Assembly (NCBI GenBank): GCA_963849495.1
Contig: CAWKHN010000015.1
Location: 294,723-358,722, forward strand
Direction of reading: 5' to 3'
Length of the DNA stretch: 64,000 nt
Source of the DNA: an uncultured Chloroflexia bacterium
Lineage (GTDB): Bacteria > Chloroflexota > Limnocylindria > Limnocylindrales > CSP1-4
In this document: positions 670 through 57,208 of the stretch, piece after piece
How positions within the stretch are numbered: position 1 is the stretch's first letter
How the letters are laid out: every line of letters begins with the position of its first letter
Translations under genes and position numbers: made by a program
The notes under the pieces: generated by a model
Seen by the model: the letters and a program-made list of their open reading frames with translations, nothing else
Databases searched by the model: none
What the model was told of the DNA's origin: nothing

Positions 670-1818
670 ATGTTCGGAATGCTGCACGGCGGTCTGCCGC
701 GAATCACGCAGGATGGGGTCGATCTCGACGCGCTCGAGGCGGCCGTGAAGGCGGGCACGACCTCCGCGGAGGCGCTGCACGAGGCGATCGACCGGCTGGT
801 CGCCGAGGTCGTGGCGGCCCAGGTGGACGCCAGCTTGGAGCTCGTCACCGACGGGCAGGTGCGCTGGCCTGATCTCGCGGCCGCCGTGCTGGCAGAGCTT
901 GGGGGGGCGGCGGATACCTCGACGCCGGCGCCGGCATCCGATCCTGGGCCCGCTCCGGCGCCCGCTTCGACGCCCGATCCGGCATCGCCGGCCGATCCAG
1001 CGTCCGCTTCGGCGCCCTCGCCCGCTGAGACGCCCGCCCCCGCGTCGACGCCCGGCGCGTTCCTCGTGGACGCCTGGCGTGCGGCGTCGGCGCTCACCGA
1101 CCACCCCGTTGCCCAGGCCGTGCCGGGCCCGTACTCGCTCGGCCGCCGGAACACAGGCGCGTCCGCCGCACGGCGCCGGGCGCGCACCATGGCCCTCGCG
1201 GACGCGCTGGCCGTCGTGCTCCGCGCGCTCGCCGATGCTGGCTGCCCCATCGTCGTCGTCGAGGAGCCGGCCGCTATCCGGATCGGCACCACCACCGGCG
1301 AGCGCCGCCTGTTCGCCGATGCACATCGCCGGCTGCTCGAGGGGGTCCCGGACCTGCACGCGATGCTTGCGATCTCCGGCGGATCGGCTGCGGACGCCGG
1401 ACCGGAGACCATCTTCGCGGCGCCGTACCGCTCCCACCTGTTCGACCTGATCGCCGGCCCGGACGACTGGAACCTGGTGCGCGCGGCGCCGCCCGATCGG
1501 GGGATCGTCTGCGCCGTGCTGCGCGCGGGCCCCGGCCCGTCCGACGACCAGGCACCGATCCTGGTCTGGGCGGCACAGTACGCGGCGTCCACCGGCTCCC
1601 GCGGCCTCGCACGGGTGGGGCTCGCCAACTCGACCCCGCTCCGCGGCCTGTCCGCCGCCGATGCGCTGACCGCCGCACAGGCCCTCGGCCGAGCCGCCGG
1701 CCTGGCCGCCATGACCCCCGAGGACGCCGTCGCCGCCGGCCTTGACGCCCGCACCTTCGCAAACCGGCCGAGGCCACGGCGCCCCGCGCGCCCGACGCCG
1801 CCTCCCCCCGAGGGTTGA
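670..1818 (+). CDS. hypothetical protein, possible UroD/MetE-like (cobalamin-independent methionine synthase C-terminal-like) fold with a Pro/Ala/Ser-rich low-complexity insert
   Basis: ORF 391..1818. The segment CPIVVVEEPAAIR resembles the IQxDEPA motif of the Meth_synt_2 family; the zinc ligands are not obviously conserved. In-frame ATG at 670. The start is uncertain. Confidence 0.35.
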   Translation: MFGMLHGGLPRITQDGVDLDALEAAVKAGTTSAEALHEAIDRLVAEVVAAQVDASLELVTDGQVRWPDLAAAVLAELGGAADTSTPAPASDPGPAPAPASTPDPASPADPASASAPSPAETPAPASTPGAFLVDAWRAASALTDHPVAQAVPGPYSLGRRNTGASAARRRARTMALADALAVVLRALADAGCPIVVVEEPAAIRIGTTTGERRLFADAHRRLLEGVPDLHAMLAISGGSAADAGPETIFAAPYRSHLFDLIAGPDDWNLVRAAPPDRGIVCAVLRAGPGPSDDQAPILVWAAQYAASTGSRGLARVGLANSTPLRGLSAADALTAAQALGRAAGLAAMTPEDAVAAGLDARTFANRPRPRRPARPTPPPPEG

Positions 1819-1870
1819 TCCGCCGCCGTCCGCTCCGGCCGGCGCCACCCACCAGCACGCGAGGATTGCC

Positions 1871-3127
1871 GTGACCACGTCCTTCTGGCATGGATTTGCC
1901 GACATGCACACCGTCAAGGACGCCGAGGTGGTGATCCGCGACGGCGACGGCGTGTGGGTCACCGACGTCGACGGGCGCCGCTATCTCGATGCGACCGCCG
2001 GGCTCTGGTACGCCAATGTCGGCTTCGGGCGCGGCGAGATCGCCGATGCGGTGGCGGCGCAGCTGCGGCGGCTGTCGGCGTATTCCTCGTTCGGCGGCTA
2101 CACGACGGAGCCGACGGTGCAGCTGGCGGCCCGCCTGGCCGCGATGGCGCCGATCGACGACGCCGTCGTCTTCTTCACCTCCGGTGGCTCGGAATCCATC
2201 GACACGGCTGCCAAGCTCGCGCGCCGGTACTGGGACGTCGTCGGCCGGCCCGAGAAGCGCGTCATCGTGTCGCGCCAGCACAGCTACCACGGCATGGCCG
2301 CCTTCGGGACCTCGCTCGGCGGCATCCCGATCAACGAGGCGGGCTACGGCCCGCTGGTCGGCGACATCGTCCACGTCGGCGTGCACGACGTGGCGGCGAT
2401 CGAGGCCCTGTTCGAGGCGCGGGCAGGCGAGATCGCGGCCTTCATCGCGGAGCCGGTGATCGGCGCGGGCGGCGTGATCCCGCCCAGGGACGGGTACTTC
2501 GCCCGCGTCCAGGAGCTGTGCCGCCGGCACGACATCCTGCTCATCGTCGATGAGGTCATCACCGGGTTCGGACGGACCGGATCCTGGTGGGGGAGCCAGC
2601 GCTATGGGATCCAGCCGGACCTCATCACGTTCGCCAAAGGCGTGACGTCGGGGTACGTGCCGCTGGGCGGCGTGATCGTGGGTCCACGGGTCCGCGCCCC
2701 GTTCTGGGACGACCCGATCCCCGGCGCCATCTTCCGGCACGGCTACACCTACTCCGGCCATGCCGGCGCGTGCGCGGCCGCGATGGCCAACCTCGACATC
2801 CTCGAGCGCGAGGATCTCGTCGGCCGGGTCCGCACCCTGGAACCGGTCCTGGCGGCGGCCCTCGGCCGGCTGGCCGACGCGCCGCTCGTCGGTGAGGTGC
2901 GGACCGTCGGTCTGACCGGCGCCGTCCAGCTCGCCGACGAGGTGCAGGCGGCAAACCCCGGAGCGATCGAGGCGGTCGTTGCCGCGGCTCGCCGCCACGG
3001 CGTCCTCACGCGAGCCGTCCGCGGCGGCGCCCTGCAGGTGTCGCCGGCGTTCGTCATCACGGAGGCCGAGATCTCGACCCTCGCGGATGGCTTCGAGGCC
3101 GCCCTGCGGGAGGTCGCGGCACGCTGA
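1871..3127 (+). CDS. class III (omega) aminotransferase, PLP-dependent
   Basis: ORF 1742..3127 with GTG at 1871 after a GAGGA. The product has the motif layout of aspartate-aminotransferase-fold class III enzymes (LIVDEVITGFGRTGSWWG, TFAKGVTSGYVPLG). Confidence 0.85.
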   Translation: MTTSFWHGFADMHTVKDAEVVIRDGDGVWVTDVDGRRYLDATAGLWYANVGFGRGEIADAVAAQLRRLSAYSSFGGYTTEPTVQLAARLAAMAPIDDAVVFFTSGGSESIDTAAKLARRYWDVVGRPEKRVIVSRQHSYHGMAAFGTSLGGIPINEAGYGPLVGDIVHVGVHDVAAIEALFEARAGEIAAFIAEPVIGAGGVIPPRDGYFARVQELCRRHDILLIVDEVITGFGRTGSWWGSQRYGIQPDLITFAKGVTSGYVPLGGVIVGPRVRAPFWDDPIPGAIFRHGYTYSGHAGACAAAMANLDILEREDLVGRVRTLEPVLAAALGRLADAPLVGEVRTVGLTGAVQLADEVQAANPGAIEAVVAAARRHGVLTRAVRGGALQVSPAFVITEAEISTLADGFEAALREVAAR

Positions 3128-3200
3128 GCCGGGCCGCGGCATCGGCGTAATCCCGATACGCGGGCAGGGACCGACGCCCCTCGCCGACCGTCGCCGACCG

Positions 3201-3315
3201 TGACCCATCAATGTGTCATGGCACGGATCCCCGAGTTCCGGTGGAACCCCGGACTGCGACTTCGTGCCCCGAGCCGAGCGTGGACCGAGTCGCGTTGACA
3301 CCCGTGCGAGTCAGG
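3201..3315. mobile_element. MITE-like element copy 1 (~110 bp) with terminal inverted repeats ATGTGTCA...TGACAC
   Basis: tgacccatcaATGTGTCAtggcacgg...gagccgagcgtggaccgagtcgcgtTGACACccgtgcgagtcaggg. It is homologous over its whole length to 4415..4529. Confidence 0.55.
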
Positions 3316-3324
3316 GCGGCGGGC

Positions 3325-3432
3325 AGCGCCGGGCGCAATCGCGTGGTCAGGGCGACGCGTAGCGCCGGCCGTCATCGCGTGGTCAGCGCGTCGCGCAAAG
3401 CCGGCCGTCATCGGGTGGTTGGCCGGCGCAGC
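3325..3432. repeat. three tandem ~36-38-bp repeats (agcgccggccgtcatcgcgtggtcag...), the last overlapping the 3' end of the XRE gene
   Basis: Direct reading of three consecutive similar units. Confidence 0.7.
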
Positions 3433-4229
3433 AGGCGAGCGGCCGCATCGGCGTAGTCCTCGTAGGCAGCAGCTCGGCGACGAGATCCGAGCAGCGTCGG
3501 CCGCAGCCAGGCGGCGCCACGCTGGGCGGCGTCGACCATTCCCAGCGCCCAGCCAGTCGGCGGTTCCCGAGCGGGATCGGAGAGCCAGGCAGCGACATCG
3601 CCGATTCCGGCAGGGAATGCGCGGACGACGAGATCGCGGTTGTCGGCAAGCCGGTGTCCCAGCGCGACGCTGTCCAATGCGGCGACGAGCACGGCGGATC
3701 GCCGCGGGCTCCAGCCAAGGCGGCGCGCCGCCGTCCATGCCTCTCGCTCGTAGAATGCGACGCTCCGCTGCAGGGCTCCGAAGTCCGGGATCTCCGTCTT
3801 GGTTTCCTCGACCAGGAGCGCGGCATCGGCGGCCCTGAAAGCCAGCAGATCGATCCAGCCACGCGGCGGGTCGTCGCCGAGCGGGACCTCTGTGACCGTC
3901 CGCCATCCGGTCCGCTCGAGCCTGCGGGCGACATATCCAGTCAGCCGGGCGTGGACAGCGTCGCGCTGACGGTATCGATCCGCCAGGTGGCGCGCATCGA
4001 GCTGCAGCGAGGCCCTGATCCCGAGCGCCGCCAGCACCCGCTCCACGGCGAGCAGGTCGAGATGACGTGCGGCGCCCGTCTCGACCCGCCAGATGGTCGC
4101 CTGGGAGGTGCGAGCACGATCCGCGAGCTCCCGCTGCGACCAGCCGATGAGCTGCCGGGCCTCGCGGCCGACGTCCGCCAGATGGGGGGCGAACGCGCGG
4201 CGGCCGAGGTCGATGACTGAAGTTGGCAC
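3408..4229 (-). CDS. XRE-family HTH DNA-binding protein with a C-terminal putative PD-(D/E)XK nuclease-like domain
   Basis: ORF 3408..4718 -. A GTG at 4229 gives VPTSVIDLGRRAFAPHLADVGREARQLIGWSQRELADRARTSQATIWRVETG..., a helix-turn-helix. Downstream, WIDLLAF ... LLVEETKTE matches a D...(D/E)xK pattern. The extended N-terminus in the track is a low-complexity GC artefact. Confidence 0.7.
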   Translation of the reverse strand: MPTSVIDLGRRAFAPHLADVGREARQLIGWSQRELADRARTSQATIWRVETGAARHLDLLAVERVLAALGIRASLQLDARHLADRYRQRDAVHARLTGYVARRLERTGWRTVTEVPLGDDPPRGWIDLLAFRAADAALLVEETKTEIPDFGALQRSVAFYEREAWTAARRLGWSPRRSAVLVAALDSVALGHRLADNRDLVVRAFPAGIGDVAAWLSDPAREPPTGWALGMVDAAQRGAAWLRPTLLGSRRRAAAYEDYADAAARLLRRPTTR

Positions 4230-4295
4230 AGCGCGTGGATACACGAGAACGCTTGTCGGTCCCTTATCCCGGATGGGCGAAACGGGCCACTTTGC

Positions 4296-4420
4296 CGGTC
4301 GTGCCCGGGGTGCACGTGCCGGTCGTGCCGGTCGTGCCGGGGGCTCGTGCCGCCGGTCGTGCCAGGGGCGCTCGTGCCATGGGGCGCTCGTGCCAGGGGC
4401 GCTCGTGCCGGTCGTGACCC
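4296..4420. repeat. iteron-like array: about 10 copies of TCGTGCC(G/A)G in two sub-periodicities directly upstream of the XRE gene
   Basis: ggtcgtgcccgggg tgcacgtgccgg tcgtgccgg tcgtgccggggg ctcgtgccgcc ggtcgtgccagggg cgctcgtgccatgggg cgctcgtgccagggg cgctcgtgccgg tcgtgaccc. Confidence 0.7.
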
Positions 4421-4529
4421 AGATATGTGTCACCAGGCTGGTGTCGCAGCGTGGCTGGAGGTCCGGACGACGACTTCGAGCCCCCAGCCGAGCGTGGGCC
4501 ATGTCTCGATGACACATAGTCGAGTCAGG
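4415..4529. mobile_element. MITE-like element copy 2 with perfect 8-bp terminal inverted repeats ATGTGTCA / TGACACAT
   Basis: tgacccagatATGTGTCAccaggctgg...cagccgagcgtgggccatgtctcgaTGACACATagtcgagtcagg. Same orientation as copy 1. Confidence 0.6.
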
Positions 4530-4798
4530 AAGGGGCCGGAACCCGGGGCGCCGCTCCCGGCGCCCCGGCCGGCGCCCCGGGGCCGCCGCCGCACCACGGC
4601 CACCCGGGTCCCGGCGCCCCGCCACGCCCCCGGCCCCGCGCCGCGCCAGCTGAGCCGCCCCCCGCCGGCGCAACCCGCGGGAGACCCGGTTGCGTCCTCG
4701 GCGCGACGGTGCCACCATCCGGTTTCGTGCCGCGCCGGACCGGACCGGCGCCGCCTCCCAGCGTCGCCACCCCCTCGAAGGGGAAGGAGGTCGTCCCG

Positions 4799-7712: not shown

Positions 7713-8569
7713 TCCCGGCGGCCTTCGGGTACACCCGCGCCGACAGCGTCGACGACGCGCTCCGCATCCTCGCCTCGGACGAGGGGGCCAAGGTCATCGC
7801 CGGCGGGCAGAGCATCCTGCCCTTGATGAAGCTCCGCCTGGCGAGGGCGGAGACGCTCGTGGACATCGGCCGGCTGGGCGAGCTGCGGGGCGTCGAGCGG
7901 CTCGAGGACGGCCGGCTGGCGGTCGGCGCGCTGACGACGTACGCGGAGCTCATGGACTCCCGGGCGATCCACTACGGCGTGCTGAAGGACGCGCTGCCCA
8001 CCATCGGCGACGTCCAGGTCCGCAACCGCGGCACCGTCGGCGGCGCCGTCGCGCACGCGGACCCGGCCTCGGACCTGCCGGCGGCGCTGCTCGCGCTCGA
8101 TGCCGAGATCGTCGTCCAGTCCGCAGCCGGCACGCGGGTGCTCAAGGCCGATGGCTTCTTCGAGGGCGCGTTCACGACGGGCCTCCGGCACGACGAGCTG
8201 GTCACCCAGGTCCGCCTGCCCGCACCTCTCGACAACGCCGGATCCGCCTATGCCTCGCTCGAGCAGCCGGCCTCCGGCTACGCGATGGTGGGCGTGGCGG
8301 CCGTCGTGATCGTGGGCCCGGGCAACGTGATCGAATGGGCCGGCATCGGCGTGACCGGTGTCTCGGACCACCCGTACCGGGCGACCGAGGTCGAGGAGGC
8401 GCTCGTCGGCAGCGACGGCTCTGCCCCGGCCGTTGCCGCCGCCGCGGCGAAGGTCGTCGGCTCGCGTTCGGTCAACGGCGACATCCACGCCAACCCCGAG
8501 TACCGCGCCGCCATGGCGGTCGTGTACACGCGGCGGGCCATCGAGGCGGCGCTGGCCCGCGTGGGCTGA
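7709..8569 (+). CDS. coxM: CO dehydrogenase medium (FAD-binding) subunit
   Basis: ORF 7490..8569. ATG at 7709 overlaps the coxL stop (ATGA). [21 protein letters not shown]...[15 protein letters not shown] matches the FAD_binding_5 / CO_deh_flav_C layout. Confidence 0.9.
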   Translation: MIPAAFGYTRADSVDDALRILASDEGAKVIAGGQSILPLMKLRLARAETLVDIGRLGELRGVERLEDGRLAVGALTTYAELMDSRAIHYGVLKDALPTIGDVQVRNRGTVGGAVAHADPASDLPAALLALDAEIVVQSAAGTRVLKADGFFEGAFTTGLRHDELVTQVRLPAPLDNAGSAYASLEQPASGYAMVGVAAVVIVGPGNVIEWAGIGVTGVSDHPYRATEVEEALVGSDGSAPAVAAAAAKVVGSRSVNGDIHANPEYRAAMAVVYTRRAIEAALARVG

Positions 8570-8593
8570 CGGCGCGGCGATTCGGAACAGGCG

Positions 8594-9673
8594 GTGCGGC
8601 TCGAGCGAATCGTTCCCGGCCGCCGCGCGCCGGACGGTCTCGTGGGTGCCGTGCTCACCCGCGACCTGTCGGTCGCGGGTGCCCGCTGGTCGAAGGGTCG
8701 GCGGCTGTCCGCGGCCGACCTGGCGGCCTTCGCCGACCTGCCCGACGGTCCGCCGGGGATCACCGGGACCACGGGGATCACGGTCCTGGTCCCGGAGCCC
8801 GTCGACGTCCACGAGGATGACGCCGGTCTCCGGCTCGCCGCGGCGGTCTCCGGCGGCGACCCCGGCCTGACCCCGCGCGGCCCCGTCCAGTCCCGCGTCG
8901 ACCTCGTCGCGGCCGTGCCGGGTGTCGTGGCCGTGCGCGTGGCAGCGCTCGAGCGCGTCAACCGGATCGACCCGCTCGAAGTGTTCACGGTGTTCGATGG
9001 CCAGGTGGTCGGGCCCGGCGACCTCGTCGCGAGCGTCAAGATCGGGCCGCACCTCGTCCGCGAGGAGGTTCTGGCGGCGGGGGAGGGGATCCTGCGGCGG
9101 GGTGGCCCGCTCGTCCGCGTCCGGCCGTTCCGGCCGGTCCGGATCGCCGTGCTGGTCGCGGAGCGCATCGGCGGCGCGGCGAGGGAGCGGTTCGAGGCCT
9201 CGGTGCGGGCCAAGGCCGCGGGCCTGGGGGCGGTCCTCGCGACCATCGACTACGTGCCCGACGATGCCGCGGCCGTGACCGCGGCGCTGGCAACGGCCGT
9301 GGGGAGCGTCCGGCAAAGCGGGCACGCTGCCCGGATCGTGCTCACCGCGGGCGGTGGCAGCACCGATCCGGCCGACCCCTTCTTCGCGGCGGTCGAGGCG
9401 CTGGGCGGCCGGATCGTGCGCCACGGCGTCCCGGCCCACCCGGGGTCGATGCTCTGGCTGGGCCGCGTCGGCCGGGCCGCGATCGTCGGCCTGCCCAGCT
9501 GCGGCGCGTTCTCGAAGGCGACCGCCGCGGACCTGCTCCTGCCGCGCCTCGTTGCCGGAGAGCCCGCGAGCGCGGTCACGGTCGCGCGCCTCGGTCACGG
9601 CGGGATCCTCACCCGCAGCCAGCGCTTCCGGTTCCCGGCCTACGCGCGGGAGCTCGACGCCCCCGACGGCTGA
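8594..9673 (+). CDS. molybdopterin-binding (MoCF-biosynthesis / MoeA-CinA-like) domain protein, cox accessory
   Basis: The C-terminal half (LTAGGGSTDPADPFF...HGVPAHPGSMLWLG...GLPSC) resembles the MoCF_biosynth fold. Placement is between coxM and coxD. Confidence 0.5.
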   Translation: MRLERIVPGRRAPDGLVGAVLTRDLSVAGARWSKGRRLSAADLAAFADLPDGPPGITGTTGITVLVPEPVDVHEDDAGLRLAAAVSGGDPGLTPRGPVQSRVDLVAAVPGVVAVRVAALERVNRIDPLEVFTVFDGQVVGPGDLVASVKIGPHLVREEVLAAGEGILRRGGPLVRVRPFRPVRIAVLVAERIGGAARERFEASVRAKAAGLGAVLATIDYVPDDAAAVTAALATAVGSVRQSGHAARIVLTAGGGSTDPADPFFAAVEALGGRIVRHGVPAHPGSMLWLGRVGRAAIVGLPSCGAFSKATAADLLLPRLVAGEPASAVTVARLGHGGILTRSQRFRFPAYARELDAPDG

Positions 9674-22370: not shown

Positions 22371-22518
22371 GGGGCCATCCGGCGGCCCGCGGTCCCGGCC
22401 ACTCGTCGCCCTCGCCCTCGCCGCGACTCACGTTGGGGTCAATGGGCCTCCCGCCGAGCGTGGCTCGCTGCCGCAACCTTGACCTCGCGGGTCGACCTGA
22501 GCGCGCCGCACCTCCGCC

Positions 22519-22543
22519 TGACCCACACACGTGTCAATCGGCG
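22519..22543. repeat. left flank repeat of the VapBC cassette (tgacccacacACGTGTCAATCGGCG)
   Basis: Shares A(C/T)GTGTCAATCGGCG with 23308-23322, and the tgaccca...aYgtgtca head with the MITE-like elements at 3201 and 4415. Confidence 0.5.
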
Positions 22544-22610
22544 CCCGTGCCCTCGTGCGCCAAGGTCGGTTGTAGGTCCGGGGGGATCGGGCGTCAGAGC
22601 CGCCGTTGGC

Positions 22611-23072
22611 TCAGACGCCAATGACCTCGATCTGATCGCGCGACAACCCGGCGGCCTCGCGGAGCAGATCCATGTCGTCGGGGTCGGACGTGAGGATCAC
22701 AGCCGCACCTGCGGCCACAGCCTCCGCCATGACGATCGCGTCGACCGCGGACGGTGGCCGGTCGCCCTTCCGACGCCGACCCGACGTCCGCCGGAGATCC
22801 CACGCACGGGCGCGCAGGATCCCGGCCTGGCGGGCGCGCTCGGGGGTGAGCGGCAGTTCCTCGTCGACACTCCCGATGACTCCGTCGATCATTGCGTGGT
22901 CAGGCCGGTCGGTCACCACCTCGGCAAGCACAGCCGACGGGATCGCCACCTGGCGTCCCTCGGTGCGGGCGCGCGCGAGGACAGCACGGGCATCACGATT
23001 GCCGTCAGCGATCGCCGAGATCCCGCCCGAGTCCAGCAGGAGTGCGCCTCGGCTGACTGCTACCTCGGCCAA
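22611..23072 (-). CDS. vapC: PIN-domain ribonuclease toxin
   Basis: TTG start overlapping the vapB stop. ...LLDSGG... with conserved acidic residues. Confidence 0.75.
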   Translation of the reverse strand: MAEVAVSRGALLLDSGGISAIADGNRDARAVLARARTEGRQVAIPSAVLAEVVTDRPDHAMIDGVIGSVDEELPLTPERARQAGILRARAWDLRRTSGRRRKGDRPPSAVDAIVMAEAVAAGAAVILTSDPDDMDLLREAAGLSRDQIEVIGV

Positions 23073-23281
23073 GGCGTCTGGTCGATGCGATGCCGGACCT
23101 CGTCAGGGATGGGACCGTAGACCGCGGACAGGTCGCGCTCGAGGTCGACCAAGCGATCATGCTGGAGCGCCCGCCCGAGAGCCTCGTCGAGATAGCGCGA
23201 GAACCCGCGCTCACCGACTCGCGCCTTGGCCTCGCGGACCCGGTCCGGGTTGAGGGTGGTGGAGAACTTCGCCGTGGTCAT
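23060..23281 (-). CDS. vapB: antitoxin of the VapBC pair
   Basis: 73-aa protein immediately upstream of, and overlapping, the PIN gene. Confidence 0.7.
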   Translation of the reverse strand: MTTAKFSTTLNPDRVREAKARVGERGFSRYLDEALGRALQHDRLVDLERDLSAVYGPIPDEVRHRIDQTPWPR

Positions 23282-23287
23282 GGCGCT

Positions 23288-23308
23288 ATCCTACTGCGGG
23301 TAGGATAC
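23288..23308 (-). promoter_or_regulatory. perfect palindrome TATCCTAC-tgcgg-GTAGGATA abutting the vapB start; probable autoregulatory operator overlapping a TAGGAT -10 box (leaderless mRNA)
   Basis: tatcctactgcgggtaggata lies 6 bp from the vapB ATG. Confidence 0.45.
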
Positions 23309-23461
23309 ATGTCAATCGGCGGGACCTACCAACCGTCCTTGATGCACATGCCCGTGCCACGCGGGACTGCTGAGCCGCGCGCAGACCACCGTTAGGCCCG
23401 TTCCCTCGTTGGTCCGCGGTGTCGTCGCCCAGCAGATGCCCGCGGTGCCGGTGCGCCGGGG

Positions 23462-56962: not shown

Positions 56963-57104
56963 GGCCCCGAAGGCCGGCCCGTCGGACGGCGCCGCATAGC
57001 CGACGTCCCGGCGCCGCGCACGGGGACCCCTGCCGGTCGGCGCTGGTAGGCGAGGTCGGGGTCGAACCGACACGTTCCTCACGGAACACCGGCTCCTAAG
57101 GCCG
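56963..57104. repeat. 142-bp direct repeat, copy 2
   Basis: See copy 1. Confidence 0.85.
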
Positions 57105-57208
57105 GCGCGTCTGCCATTTCGCCACTCGCCCGAGAGGGAGTCTAGCGCTCGGGACCCGCTGGGCCCCGCCCCCGGTGCTGCGCGAACCCGCGAACGAAGG
57201 CGTGCCTT

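Follow-up and report, generated by a model that had tools for sequence, protein, structure and literature searches.

An XRE/PD-(D/E)XK-fold gene family accompanied by box-ended repeats in uncultured soil Chloroflexota, a possible counterpart of RAYT/REPIN systems

Introduction

RAYT genes are single chromosomal genes flanked on both sides by cognate palindromic repeats, near the stop codon, and the same repeats also occur as scattered non-coding copies (PMC2817692). One genome may hold several RAYT/repeat pairs, in which protein and repeat diversify together, and no target-site duplication (TSD) is associated with the repeats (PMC2817692). The locus described here is similar in that a gene is flanked by dispersed, apparently cognate repeats, in the co-diversification of the two, in the presence of several pairs per genome and in the lack of a TSD. 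It differs, however, in its enzyme, since RAYTs belong to the HUH/Y1 transposases of the IS200/IS605 superfamily whereas our protein combines an XRE helix-turn-helix (HTH) with a PD-(D/E)XK fold; in its repeat, a unit of ~112 bp with two 18-bp boxes of double-strand type and a conserved non-hairpin core, as opposed to the REP hairpin of 20-40 nt with a GTAG/CGTC head; in the far lower number of dispersed copies, about one solo copy per 60 kb against more than 100 REP copies per genome; and in its host, which belongs to the Chloroflexota and not to the Proteobacteria.

Miniature inverted-repeat elements (MITEs), considered with their parent insertion sequences, are likewise short, non-coding and dispersed, with terminal inverted repeats (TIRs) matching the ends that flank a protein-coding copy. 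In contrast, complete two-box elements flank the present gene in place of one TIR per end, there is no TSD, domains of DDE, serine or tyrosine transposases are absent from the protein, and many genomes carry the gene at a syntenic place in the chromosome. Integron cassettes with their attC sites also show a single gene between two homologous, imperfectly palindromic direct sites of ~60-140 bp, and in both cases cassettes are seemingly exchanged at one locus; however, the ends here are TGAnnC/GnnTCA without GTTRRRY-type core sites, no integrase gene or array occurs among the flanking genes (aminotransferase, cox), and the 'cassette' gene is itself the conserved component. HipB and the C proteins of restriction-modification (R-M) systems are repressors of ~70-100 aa at their own promoters, whereas here HTH and nuclease fold form one fusion protein and the boxes are placed beyond the promoter region, occurring also downstream of the gene and elsewhere. 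Among PD-(D/E)XK proteins that take part in DNA rearrangement, XisH, TnsA of Tn7, the Rpn/YhgA nucleases and the Hjc-type resolvases have no detectable sequence relationship to the protein; we know of none with a fused XRE HTH, nor of any bracketed by cognate repeats.

To our knowledge, chromosomal genes that live alongside a population of non-coding repeats cognate to them are so far essentially confined to RAYT/REPIN systems, and we are aware of almost no study of mobile DNA in uncultured soil Chloroflexota. The literature that we covered, which was incomplete, held no description of the gene-repeat arrangement, and an earlier one is possible. We analysed a 64-kb stretch of DNA (hereafter the window) in which the gene lies between an aminotransferase gene and the cox operon, and propose, with about as much doubt as confidence, that this locus represents a single instance of a chromosomal partnership between a nuclease and a repeat, specific to Limnocylindria-type Chloroflexota, resembling RAYT/REPIN in lifestyle but with an unrelated enzyme.

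Results

Structure and copies of the repeat element

The initial annotation had recognised two homologous repeats of ~115 bp in direct orientation around the gene, and this was borne out by alignment: the two copies (Table 1) are 77-81% identical. The element measures ~112 bp and carries at each end an 18-bp box, TGAnnC-N6-GnnTCA, the two boxes being spaced ~94 bp apart. The 8-bp TIRs assigned to it earlier do exist as the inverted termini ATGTGTCA...TGACACAT of the upstream copy, but they are the inner halves of these boxes. Shuffled sequence never reaches the frequency at which the head and core patterns are observed.

As had been anticipated, the repeat recurs elsewhere. A third copy in the window adjoins the vapBC module (43.9 bits, E 2e-11 with the element profile; also aligned with the family), and the generic profile, run over 1.04 Mb of related DNA, yields 71 copies. 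Related repeat heads were, however, thought to flank vapBC on both sides, and this we could not sustain: only the element at 22424-22536 is related, while the supposed head at 23308 is part of a conserved vapBC upstream region that is present also in the related sequence L034. Neither are the elements classical MITEs, as they had been styled, since none of 54 has matching flanks of at least 4 nt at offset 0, a result equal to that of controls. A scan of metagenomes for ATGTGTCA-N65-95-TGACACAT returned 120 loci, all attributable to chance, and none fits the element profile.

The upstream copy can be folded as a single long hairpin (z -2.8). A conserved long hairpin or cruciform was nevertheless rejected, because the downstream copy does not fold in this way (z -0.2 and -0.7). 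Among 50 elements examined with RNAalifold the pairing of box with box is the sole pairing supported, and the left and right halves are complementary at 62% of positions overall against ~40% in shifted registers; on these three grounds we regard the element as quasi-palindromic and not as a conserved stem. Detection of self-palindromes, both ungapped and BLAST-based, was dropped on account of excess noise in DNA of 70% G+C. The element is not a known RNA by Rfam at gathering or permissive thresholds; in the whole window a single match attains the gathering score, namely a tRNA (57047-57131), and a permissive scan of 3100-4720 gave a single chance match to a miRNA (E 0.75).

Table 1. Coordinates of the gene, its domains and the associated repeats in the window
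Feature	Position	Strand	Details
Remnant of an earlier family gene, final ~20 codons	3125..3184	-	reads GEGRRSLPAYRDYADAAARL
Element copy downstream of gene	3201..3313	+	boxes 3201-3218 TGACCCATCAATGTGTCA, 3296-3313 TGACACCCGTGCGAGTCA
Tandem array, 36-bp x 3.1	3310..3419	.	abuts inner edge of downstream element; includes the gene's stop codon
Gene for XRE-HTH / PD-(D/E)XK-fold protein, 273 aa	3408..4229	-	GTG start at 4229
PD-(D/E)XK nuclease-fold core, residues ~92-185	3675..3956	-	alpha-beta-beta-beta-alpha-beta
Putative catalytic residues	E114 3888-3890; D127 3849-3851; E142 3804-3806; K144 3798-3800	-	
XRE/HipB-like helix-turn-helix, N-terminal, residues ~17-72	4014..4181	-	recognition helix TSQATIWR
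Conserved upstream region common to all paralogues	4230..4275	-	ATAAG..CAAGC repeat, then -10-like TATCCA ~8 nt before start
Tandem array, 15/31/58-bp periods	4294..4410	.	fills gap from upstream element to promoter region
Element copy upstream of gene	4415..4527	+	boxes 4415-4432 TGACCCAGATATGTGTCA, 4510-4527 TGACACATAGTCGAGTCA
Solo element copy, intergenic, adjoins vapBC module	22424..22536	+	boxes CGACTCACGTTGGGGTCA ... TGACCCACACACGTGTCA; same box class

The protein and its family

The start codon was picked through an alignment of homologues, and the public protein P0001 begins five codons earlier. An N-terminal HTH of the XRE type, expected from the initial annotation, is evident in the match to Pfam HTH_3 (2.2e-7); HTH_3/HTH_31 matches exceed the curated cut-off, the five-helix fold of the XRE/Cro-C1 group is present, and the closest relatives are HipB and the R-M controller proteins. 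The remainder of the protein was suspected of a D...(D/E)xK arrangement and a PD-(D/E)XK fold, and both suggestions stand. Its fold matches PD-(D/E)XK enzymes only and includes their alpha-beta-beta-beta-alpha-beta core, and the E...(P)D...(D/E)xK signature, formed by E114, D127 (in GWIDLL) and E142-x-K144 (in VEETK) and located on strands two and three, is kept in 51-52 of 53 family genes. By sequence, the domain belongs to no family in Pfam, NCBIfam, PADLOC or the PDB sequences, a UPF0102 match from one distant family member being sub-threshold, and searches of Pfam, NCBIfam and PDB gave no HUH/Y1, DDE, serine or tyrosine transposase domain in the protein. Hence a PD-(D/E)XK nuclease fold is supported for the C-terminal domain by structural matching and residue conservation, and the domain is a putative nuclease.

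Family proteins have ~270 aa and an unvarying architecture across 674 representative clusters, and are currently annotated only as 'XRE-family transcriptional regulator'. They are encoded by a set of soil Chloroflexota that are uncultured, and 'Candidatus Limnocylindrales' metagenome-assembled genomes (MAGs) have several paralogues each; all the genomes compared are MAGs. Comparison of 30 upstream regions defined a segment common to all paralogues, which is probably the promoter of a leaderless or short-leader mRNA; scanning for the sigma-70 consensus gave no match.

Association of elements with the gene

Of the 71 profile copies, 56 lie no more than 700 bp from a family gene, such that element density is 0.49 per kb near family genes and 0.016 per kb elsewhere. 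One element is usually placed 60-220 bp upstream and another 10-115 bp downstream of the gene, in mixed orientation relative to it. The profile finds elements on both sides at 19 of 49 loci, and direct comparison of flanks reveals similar upstream and downstream sequences at 29 loci. The profile detects no element at approximately 20 of the 49 loci, mainly those of an old clade resident at the cox locus; where these are cox-clade loci, the downstream element is missing altogether, and the gene therefore need not be flanked by a pair. Copies of the solo kind lie between genes and are sparse, with 15 in 0.92 Mb and one in the window; their number is far below that typical of REPINs and is compatible also with a regulon. 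The one case of presence and absence concerns an orthologous spacer, which contains an element in L046, an element of another subtype in L029 and none in L013, L005 or L006; its poor alignment blurs the junctions. Beside solo copies, where nearby ORFs were annotated superficially, family genes were seen but no transposase gene.

The iteron-like arrays noted previously are real, and the two beside the gene have the highest tandem-array scores in the window; they are not conserved iterons, however, but variable tandem duplications abutting element edges. Such arrays occur at 32% of element edges compared with 4.8% of random positions, a ~7-fold enrichment.

Boxes vary with the recognition helix

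Each of the several paralogues in a genome has a private box type, and in ~30 genes the class of the recognition helix agrees with that of the boxes: SQAxxW is paired with TGAC(T/C)C, SQxxxC with TGAKKC/TGAACC, SQxxxS with GATCC/TGCAT, SHTxxW with TGGCAC and SKGTTW with CCCCAC. The protein tree implies a minimum of three origins for the S class and of four for the C class. In 17-18 of 50 elements the two variable positions have changed in the boxes of both ends, whereas no conserved pairing is seen outside the boxes, and boxes belonging to the same gene are 82% identical against 66% for cores. For a solo copy, the box type can usually be matched to a paralogue from its own genome. The variable bases of the boxes thus follow the recognition helix of the HTH, independent recurrences included, with shared descent as a partial confounder.

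Paralogue replacement at the cox locus

Gene and cox operon are transcribed away from each other, the position of the gene being conserved in many genomes, and most related genomes carry a family gene at this same cox-adjacent site. The cassette is therefore not a simple insertion into an empty site. Comparison of the locus among relatives showed, as had been surmised, that its arrangement varies, in that at least four protein lineages occupy the site and the cassettes of the window and of L027 are oppositely oriented beside the same aminotransferase gene; the prospect of relatives without the cassette fared less well, a family gene being there in most.

The tail of the gene was also said to be duplicated outside the cassette, which is correct, as the minus strand of 3125-3184 encodes a second such tail. 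This remnant directly adjoins the stop codon of the aminotransferase gene, and in syntenic genomes that is precisely the point at which the resident gene terminates; it is the sole tail of this kind in 1.04 Mb of related sequence, and it shares 15 of 21 residues with L036, a member of the resident clade. The earlier suggestion of a recombination or duplication scar at the left junction thus survives as to recombination, whereas a recent tandem duplication is unlikely, the remnant and the tail of the current gene being identical at only 34 of 63 nt. Synteny and sequence comparison together indicate that a unit of the L001-L004/L027 lineage replaced the resident paralogue in the window.

Discussion

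The locus had been described as a small mobile or selfish module and not a chromosomal regulator. It is indeed more than an ordinary local regulator, because the elements recur around paralogues elsewhere, solo copies appear to be polymorphic and the cassette is found in both orientations; what took place at the cox site is, however, the replacement of one paralogue by another and not simple insertion. In the partnership that we propose, the HTH would read the 18-bp boxes at both element ends, so that four cognate boxes bracket the gene, and the protein bound to a box would cut or nick at or beside it. Repair and recombination at the cut boxes could then copy or move solo elements, generate tandem duplications abutting the element edges, invert the element-gene-element unit, or allow this unit to replace a paralogous one elsewhere. 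By this route, the L001-L004/L027-lineage unit would have taken over the aminotransferase-cox site and left nothing of the old gene but its final 20 codons. Ordinary homologous recombination between repeats could also produce such rearrangements, with no need of the nuclease.

A bolder form of this proposal is that HTH-guided PD-(D/E)XK nucleases constitute an unrecognised class of repeat-mobilising or repeat-maintaining enzymes, which would cut double-stranded boxes to copy, invert and exchange solo elements and their own cassette. Their recognition helix would act as an evolvable 'code' shifting with the box, the RAYT/REPIN lifestyle would have been invented independently, and the protein-site pairs would be naturally orthogonal. 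We advance this only tentatively, as a possibility somewhat short of an even chance.

It is rather unlikely, in our estimation, that the protein is an ordinary transcription factor, an autoregulator with a small regulon, for which the boxes serve as operators and the nuclease-like domain as a dimerisation or sensor module or in some unrelated role, the repeats being duplicated operator regions rearranged by host homologous recombination. Its nearest HTH relatives do bind paired palindromic operators, and the box spacing would permit cooperative binding on one face of the DNA, but boxes situated 60-220 bp from the start codon and outside the promoter-like region common to all paralogues, often by more than 100 bp, are not simple operators, and at many loci a full element follows directly after the stop codon without obvious regulatory purpose. 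The conserved position of a gene divergent from cox and the rarity of intergenic solo elements would suit a regulator; a private box type for each of several paralogues, hot spots of tandem duplication at element edges, and both inversion and paralogue replacement at one locus would not. Moreover, the E...D...ExK residues are essentially invariant in paralogues that are 40-76% identical, which is unexpected of a degenerate scaffold.

A solitary restriction-like, defence or addiction module is improbable. In such a module the controller-type HTH would be fused to its own endonuclease, the boxes would be C-box-like sites that check its expression or activity, and genomic sites would be tolerated through tight repression or because the enzyme nicks only. 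Yet neither here nor in the other contexts seen is a methyltransferase or other partner gene adjacent, the C-terminal domain matches no defence-system profile, searches of plasmids, phages and viral contigs found no relatives, and the host chromosome itself holds the cognate sites, clustered around the gene. That the elements are partner-less MITEs or REP-like repeats, moved by another enzyme and merely accumulating beside a functionally unrelated gene family, for instance in an insertion-tolerant region, is very improbable, for while solo copies exist, individual copies can form long hairpins and orientation relative to the gene is mixed, the elements show a ~30-fold enrichment beside the gene within narrow ranges of distance, their boxes change in step with the recognition helix that the adjoining gene encodes, convergent cases included, and TSDs, and transposase genes among the superficially annotated ORFs beside solo copies, were not seen.

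If the mechanism of the nuclease-plus-repeat partnership holds, a second, unrelated enzyme class would stand beside the RAYT/REPIN systems, in uncultured soil Chloroflexota. Dozens of protein/box pairs are available in nature within the family, with two box positions following one or two residues of the helix, and the co-evolution of DNA specificity and target sites is therefore directly testable. The partnership would explain why one small gene has turned over so quickly between metabolic operons that are themselves highly conserved, and it would supply a family comprising several hundred protein clusters with a hypothesis of structure and function.

Layout of the window locus

An 18-bp box stands at the start and at the end of each of the two element copies that bracket the family gene. 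The head pattern common to both copies, GTGACCCA-N3-ATGTGTCA, was observed 6 times against 0.28 expected (both strands), and a 26-nt core pattern, also common to both, twice against 0.00 expected. The 8-bp inverted repeat ATGTGTCA...TGACACAT, described in the initial annotation as the element termini, is present, but it is the inner half of the 18-bp boxes. The GTG at 4229 matches homologue starts in the alignment, and a 436-aa ORF given for the same frame is a high-G+C artefact. The arrays at the inner edges of the elements are the two top-scoring tandem arrays in the entire 64-kb window. A repetition of the gene tail outside the cassette had been noticed at the outset; this remnant is indeed the conserved C-terminus of the family, and immediately adjoins the stop codon of the aminotransferase gene.

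A very G+C-rich, weakly repetitive stretch of CCGGCGCC-type units (4530-4660) spans the interval from the outer edge of the upstream element to the resumption of cox-locus homology (about 4664-4785). Within the coding region lies a perfect 17-nt inverted repeat (3660-3676 CAGCGCGACGCTGTCCA / 3952-3968 TGGACAGCGTCGCGCTG, 275 nt apart), coinciding with the conserved RDAVH and LDSVAL motifs; it may be a chance effect of the codons or may function as a site. The only Rfam match above gathering score in the window is a tRNA gene at 57047-57131 (-).

Coordinates of features at the window locus and at one orthologous spacer
Feature	Position	Strand	Details
Class-III aminotransferase gene	1742-3127		convergent; Pfam 1.9e-88
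Remnant of family C-terminus	3125-3184	-	reads GEGRRSLPAYRDYADAAARL; outside downstream element
Element copies	3201-3313 and 4415-4527		direct orientation; 77-81% identical to each other
Boxes of downstream element	3201-3218; 3296-3313		TGACCCATCAATGTGTCA; TGACACCCGTGCGAGTCA
Tandem array, inner edge of downstream element	3310-3419		36 bp x 3.1
Family gene	3408-4229	-	sole gene between the two elements
Tandem array, inner edge of upstream element	4294-4410		
Boxes of upstream element	4415-4432; 4510-4527		TGACCCAGATATGTGTCA; TGACACATAGTCGAGTCA
Cox-type operon, right side	4709		first gene, 2Fe-2S subunit
Orthologous spacer	L046 8509-8621; L029 8508-8612; L013 ~8590-8657; L005 ~8530-8699		

A family of nuclease-fold proteins

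The window protein carries an XRE helix-turn-helix (HTH) at residues ~17-72 (HTH_3, 2.2e-7; HTH_31, 1.9e-6; both above Pfam cut-offs), and its other ~190 residues had no match in any sequence library searched. An AlphaFold model (28 homologues as input, mean pLDDT 88.3) shows its elements in the order alpha-beta-beta-beta-alpha-beta, as is typical of PD-(D/E)XK nucleases. E114, D127 (GWIDLL) and E142-x-K144 (VEETK) show no variation in the 28-sequence alignment, and 51-52 of the 53 family genes taken from genomes retain them. Because of this predicted fold and these conserved residues, the initial assignment as a nuclease appears sound for both fold and signature. Substitutions at these catalytic-type positions occur in two family genes only, at loci L041 (E114, D127 and K144) and L037 (E142), which may be pseudogenes or non-catalytic derivatives.

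With the full-length protein as query, 253 cluster-level relatives were found at E <= 1e-3 (among 8,000 scored candidates); the C-terminal domain alone gave 382 clusters and, against an exhaustive representative library, 674 representatives, 239 with E <= 1e-10. Nearly all relatives are 260-290 aa long, the domain starts near residue 75-95 and an XRE HTH precedes it in 10/10 distant members checked; the architecture of the family is therefore fixed. Named sources are metagenome-assembled genomes (MAGs) of 'Candidatus Limnocylindrales' and other Chloroflexota, and relatives were absent from the plasmid, phage and viral collections searched. A genome scan yielded 51 loci with a full family relative (L003-L053) and four HTH-only matches; a single MAG has as many as three paralogues. 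Since all relatives are on MAG contigs, per-genome copy numbers are extrapolations.

Elements accompany the gene

The gene-plus-repeat arrangement is general across family loci. Of 50 homologous loci whose flanks were both long enough to compare, 29 have upstream and downstream flanks that are similar to each other, and 15 flank elements from different loci can be aligned end to end. A 112-position profile iterated from these 15 found 71 copies in 1.04 Mb of related sequence; 56 are no farther than 700 bp from a family gene, where the density is 0.49 per kb as opposed to 0.016 per kb elsewhere. The upstream element mostly ends 60-220 bp ahead of the start codon, and the downstream element mostly starts 10-115 bp past the stop. 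Among 49 two-flank loci the profile matched on both sides at 19, upstream only at 6, downstream only at 4 and on neither at 20, although this generic profile overlooks divergent element types and several of the 20 have flank repeats beyond its reach. The consensus reads TGAnnC-N6-GnnTCA, about 14 nt, GtGCgGGG, a central cgAAcccGgGgTTCG, CCGtGCgg, about 12 nt, and TGAnnC-N6-GnnTCA again. The 15 solo copies include one at window 22424-22536 with boxes of the window gene's class. Two or three whole elements stand in tandem upstream of the gene at L004 (9283-9880, 242-bp period), L016 (9677-9934) and L028 (5-368). L029 and L038 lie ~25 kb apart on contig CAVVJT010000007.1; a stretch of ~45 kb there holds both paralogues together with six or more elements, of two box types. 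L038 may be in decay: its tblastn match (E 3e-63) covers residues 1-259 only, and no ORF exceeds 258 aa.

Boxes vary with the recognition helix

The TGA...TCA frame of the box is constant across loci, and its inner positions vary with the HTH recognition helix.

Recognition helices and the half-sites of the accompanying boxes
Helix	Half-sites	Genes
SQA(T/A)xW	TGAC(T/C)C / G(A/T/G)GTCA	13, including window
SQ(T/S)xxC	TGATGC, TGAGTC, TGAACC or TGATCG	8
SQxxxS	GATCC / TGCAT	4
SHT(T/A)xW	TGGCAC / GTGCCA	L016, L022; L009 by eye
SKGTTW	CCCCAC...GTGGGG	L038
SQSTVQ	TGACCC...GGGTCA	L017

A simple neighbour-joining tree has at least three separate occurrences of the S class and at least four of the C class, and the type of half-site is the same at every recurrence of a class; the pattern appears to go beyond what shared ancestry alone explains. 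Around the same gene, boxes are 82% and cores 66% identical; in different-gene pairs with equally similar cores, box identity is only 67%. RNAalifold on 50 elements gave a single helix pairing the inner halves of the left and right boxes, with both sides changed in 18 and 17 sequences at its two variable positions. Most solo copies share their box type with a paralogue from their own genome or contig (CCCCAC at L038/L029; at L046, the type of the L011 paralogue in the same MAG). Given the covariation of box and helix, the HTH very probably reads the 18-bp boxes.

Probable replacement at the cox locus and other signs of DNA turnover

The cox locus offers what seems the clearest evidence of DNA turnover. 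At least 13 related loci are syntenic with the window (78-86% nucleotide identity in the cox genes, 74-84% in the aminotransferase), and all of them have a family gene in this position. Most of their proteins form one clade, which shares only 40-56% identity with the window protein; those of L009/L016 and L031/L034 take two other tree positions, and those of the window and L027 nest among L001-L004 and L007 (68-76% identical), genes of quite different contexts. Genes of the main cox clade reach the aminotransferase gene or end no more than ~60 bp short of it, and they have no downstream element. The 20-codon remnant occupies this position in the window; its xGRRS...RLS signature is of the resident-clade type (15/21 residues shared with L036), only 34/63 nt match the current gene's tail, and it is the sole one of its kind in the 1.04 Mb. 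In L027, closest to the window with 84% nt identity in the aminotransferase gene and 75% in the protein, the whole element-promoter-gene unit lies in the opposite orientation beside the same aminotransferase gene. Most simply, the resident paralogue would have given way to an element-gene-element unit from another lineage, and either orientation would be open to such units.

Tandem arrays touch 46/142 element edges (32%, versus 4.8% of random positions): 42/112 in gene-adjacent copies and 4/30 in solo copies. In one orthologous spacer the element is of the TGACTC type in L046 and of the CCCCAC type in L029, and L013, L005 and L006 have none, although the spacer aligns poorly. No target-site duplication was found (0/54 elements with a flank match of >= 4 nt at offset 0).

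The vapBC genes (window 22604-23352) adjoin the solo element and are 91% identical to L034 2343-3091, whereas the L034 cox genes are only ~81% identical to the window's, which suggests recent horizontal movement of vapBC. A box-like palindrome in L034, TGAACAAACCTGGGTGTTCA, preceded by tandem repeats, adjoins the same vapBC end, and 12-nt TGTCAATCGGCG is common to the right edge of the element (about 22530-22541) and the vapBC upstream region (about 23310-23321).

Interpretation

On the mechanism that we prefer, and to which we give an even chance on predicted structure and comparative sequence, a dimer of the protein would bind the 18-bp boxes, two per element about 94 bp apart, so that four boxes bracket the gene, and the PD-(D/E)XK domain would cut or nick at or beside them. 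Break repair, slippage and inter-element recombination could then copy solo elements or move them elsewhere with no target duplication, build arrays abutting element edges, invert the cassette and exchange cassettes between paralogous loci.

The main rival, which we consider unlikely, holds that the protein is purely a regulator, that its nuclease-like domain is no nuclease and that the repeats recombine passively. In its favour, solo copies are few, and the oldest cox-locus clade has neither a downstream element nor a profile-detectable upstream one. The geometry bears on an operator role. All paralogues of any box class (30 loci) share a 45-nt region directly before the start codon (window 4230-4275 (-)), with two (A/G)TAAG(C/T)-like repeats and a GCTACAAC-like motif ending ~8 nt before the ATG; although a sigma-70 consensus scan gave no match, this region is probably the promoter of an mRNA with a short leader or none, or else a common-factor site. 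The elements sit upstream of it, often with a tandem array between (171 bp in the window). Because they lie outside this promoter-like region, and a second element follows the stop, 'ends of a unit' fits better than 'operator over a promoter'. A restriction- or addiction-type module fits less well and is improbable; unrelated MITEs, also a poorer fit, are more improbable still, and membership of the MITE/IS class fails on target duplications and the absent transposase domain.

Cut-and-repair at cognate repeats, as preferred here, follows the same logic as REP/REPIN-RAYT systems, in which a gene is flanked by its cognate repeats, shares their phylogeny and resides in the chromosome (PMC2817692), but the enzyme and repeat type are unrelated, and RAYT/REP membership fails on both. 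Integron cassettes differ in core sites and integrase. The protein's two domains are members of the XRE-HTH and PD-(D/E)XK superfamilies, and full-text literature searches found no description of this nuclease-gene-plus-element arrangement. A chromosomal gene with its own dispersed repeats is a known kind, of which the arrangement here is a variant; that it might represent a mechanistically new class, an HTH-guided nuclease-repeat system, we suggest only tentatively.
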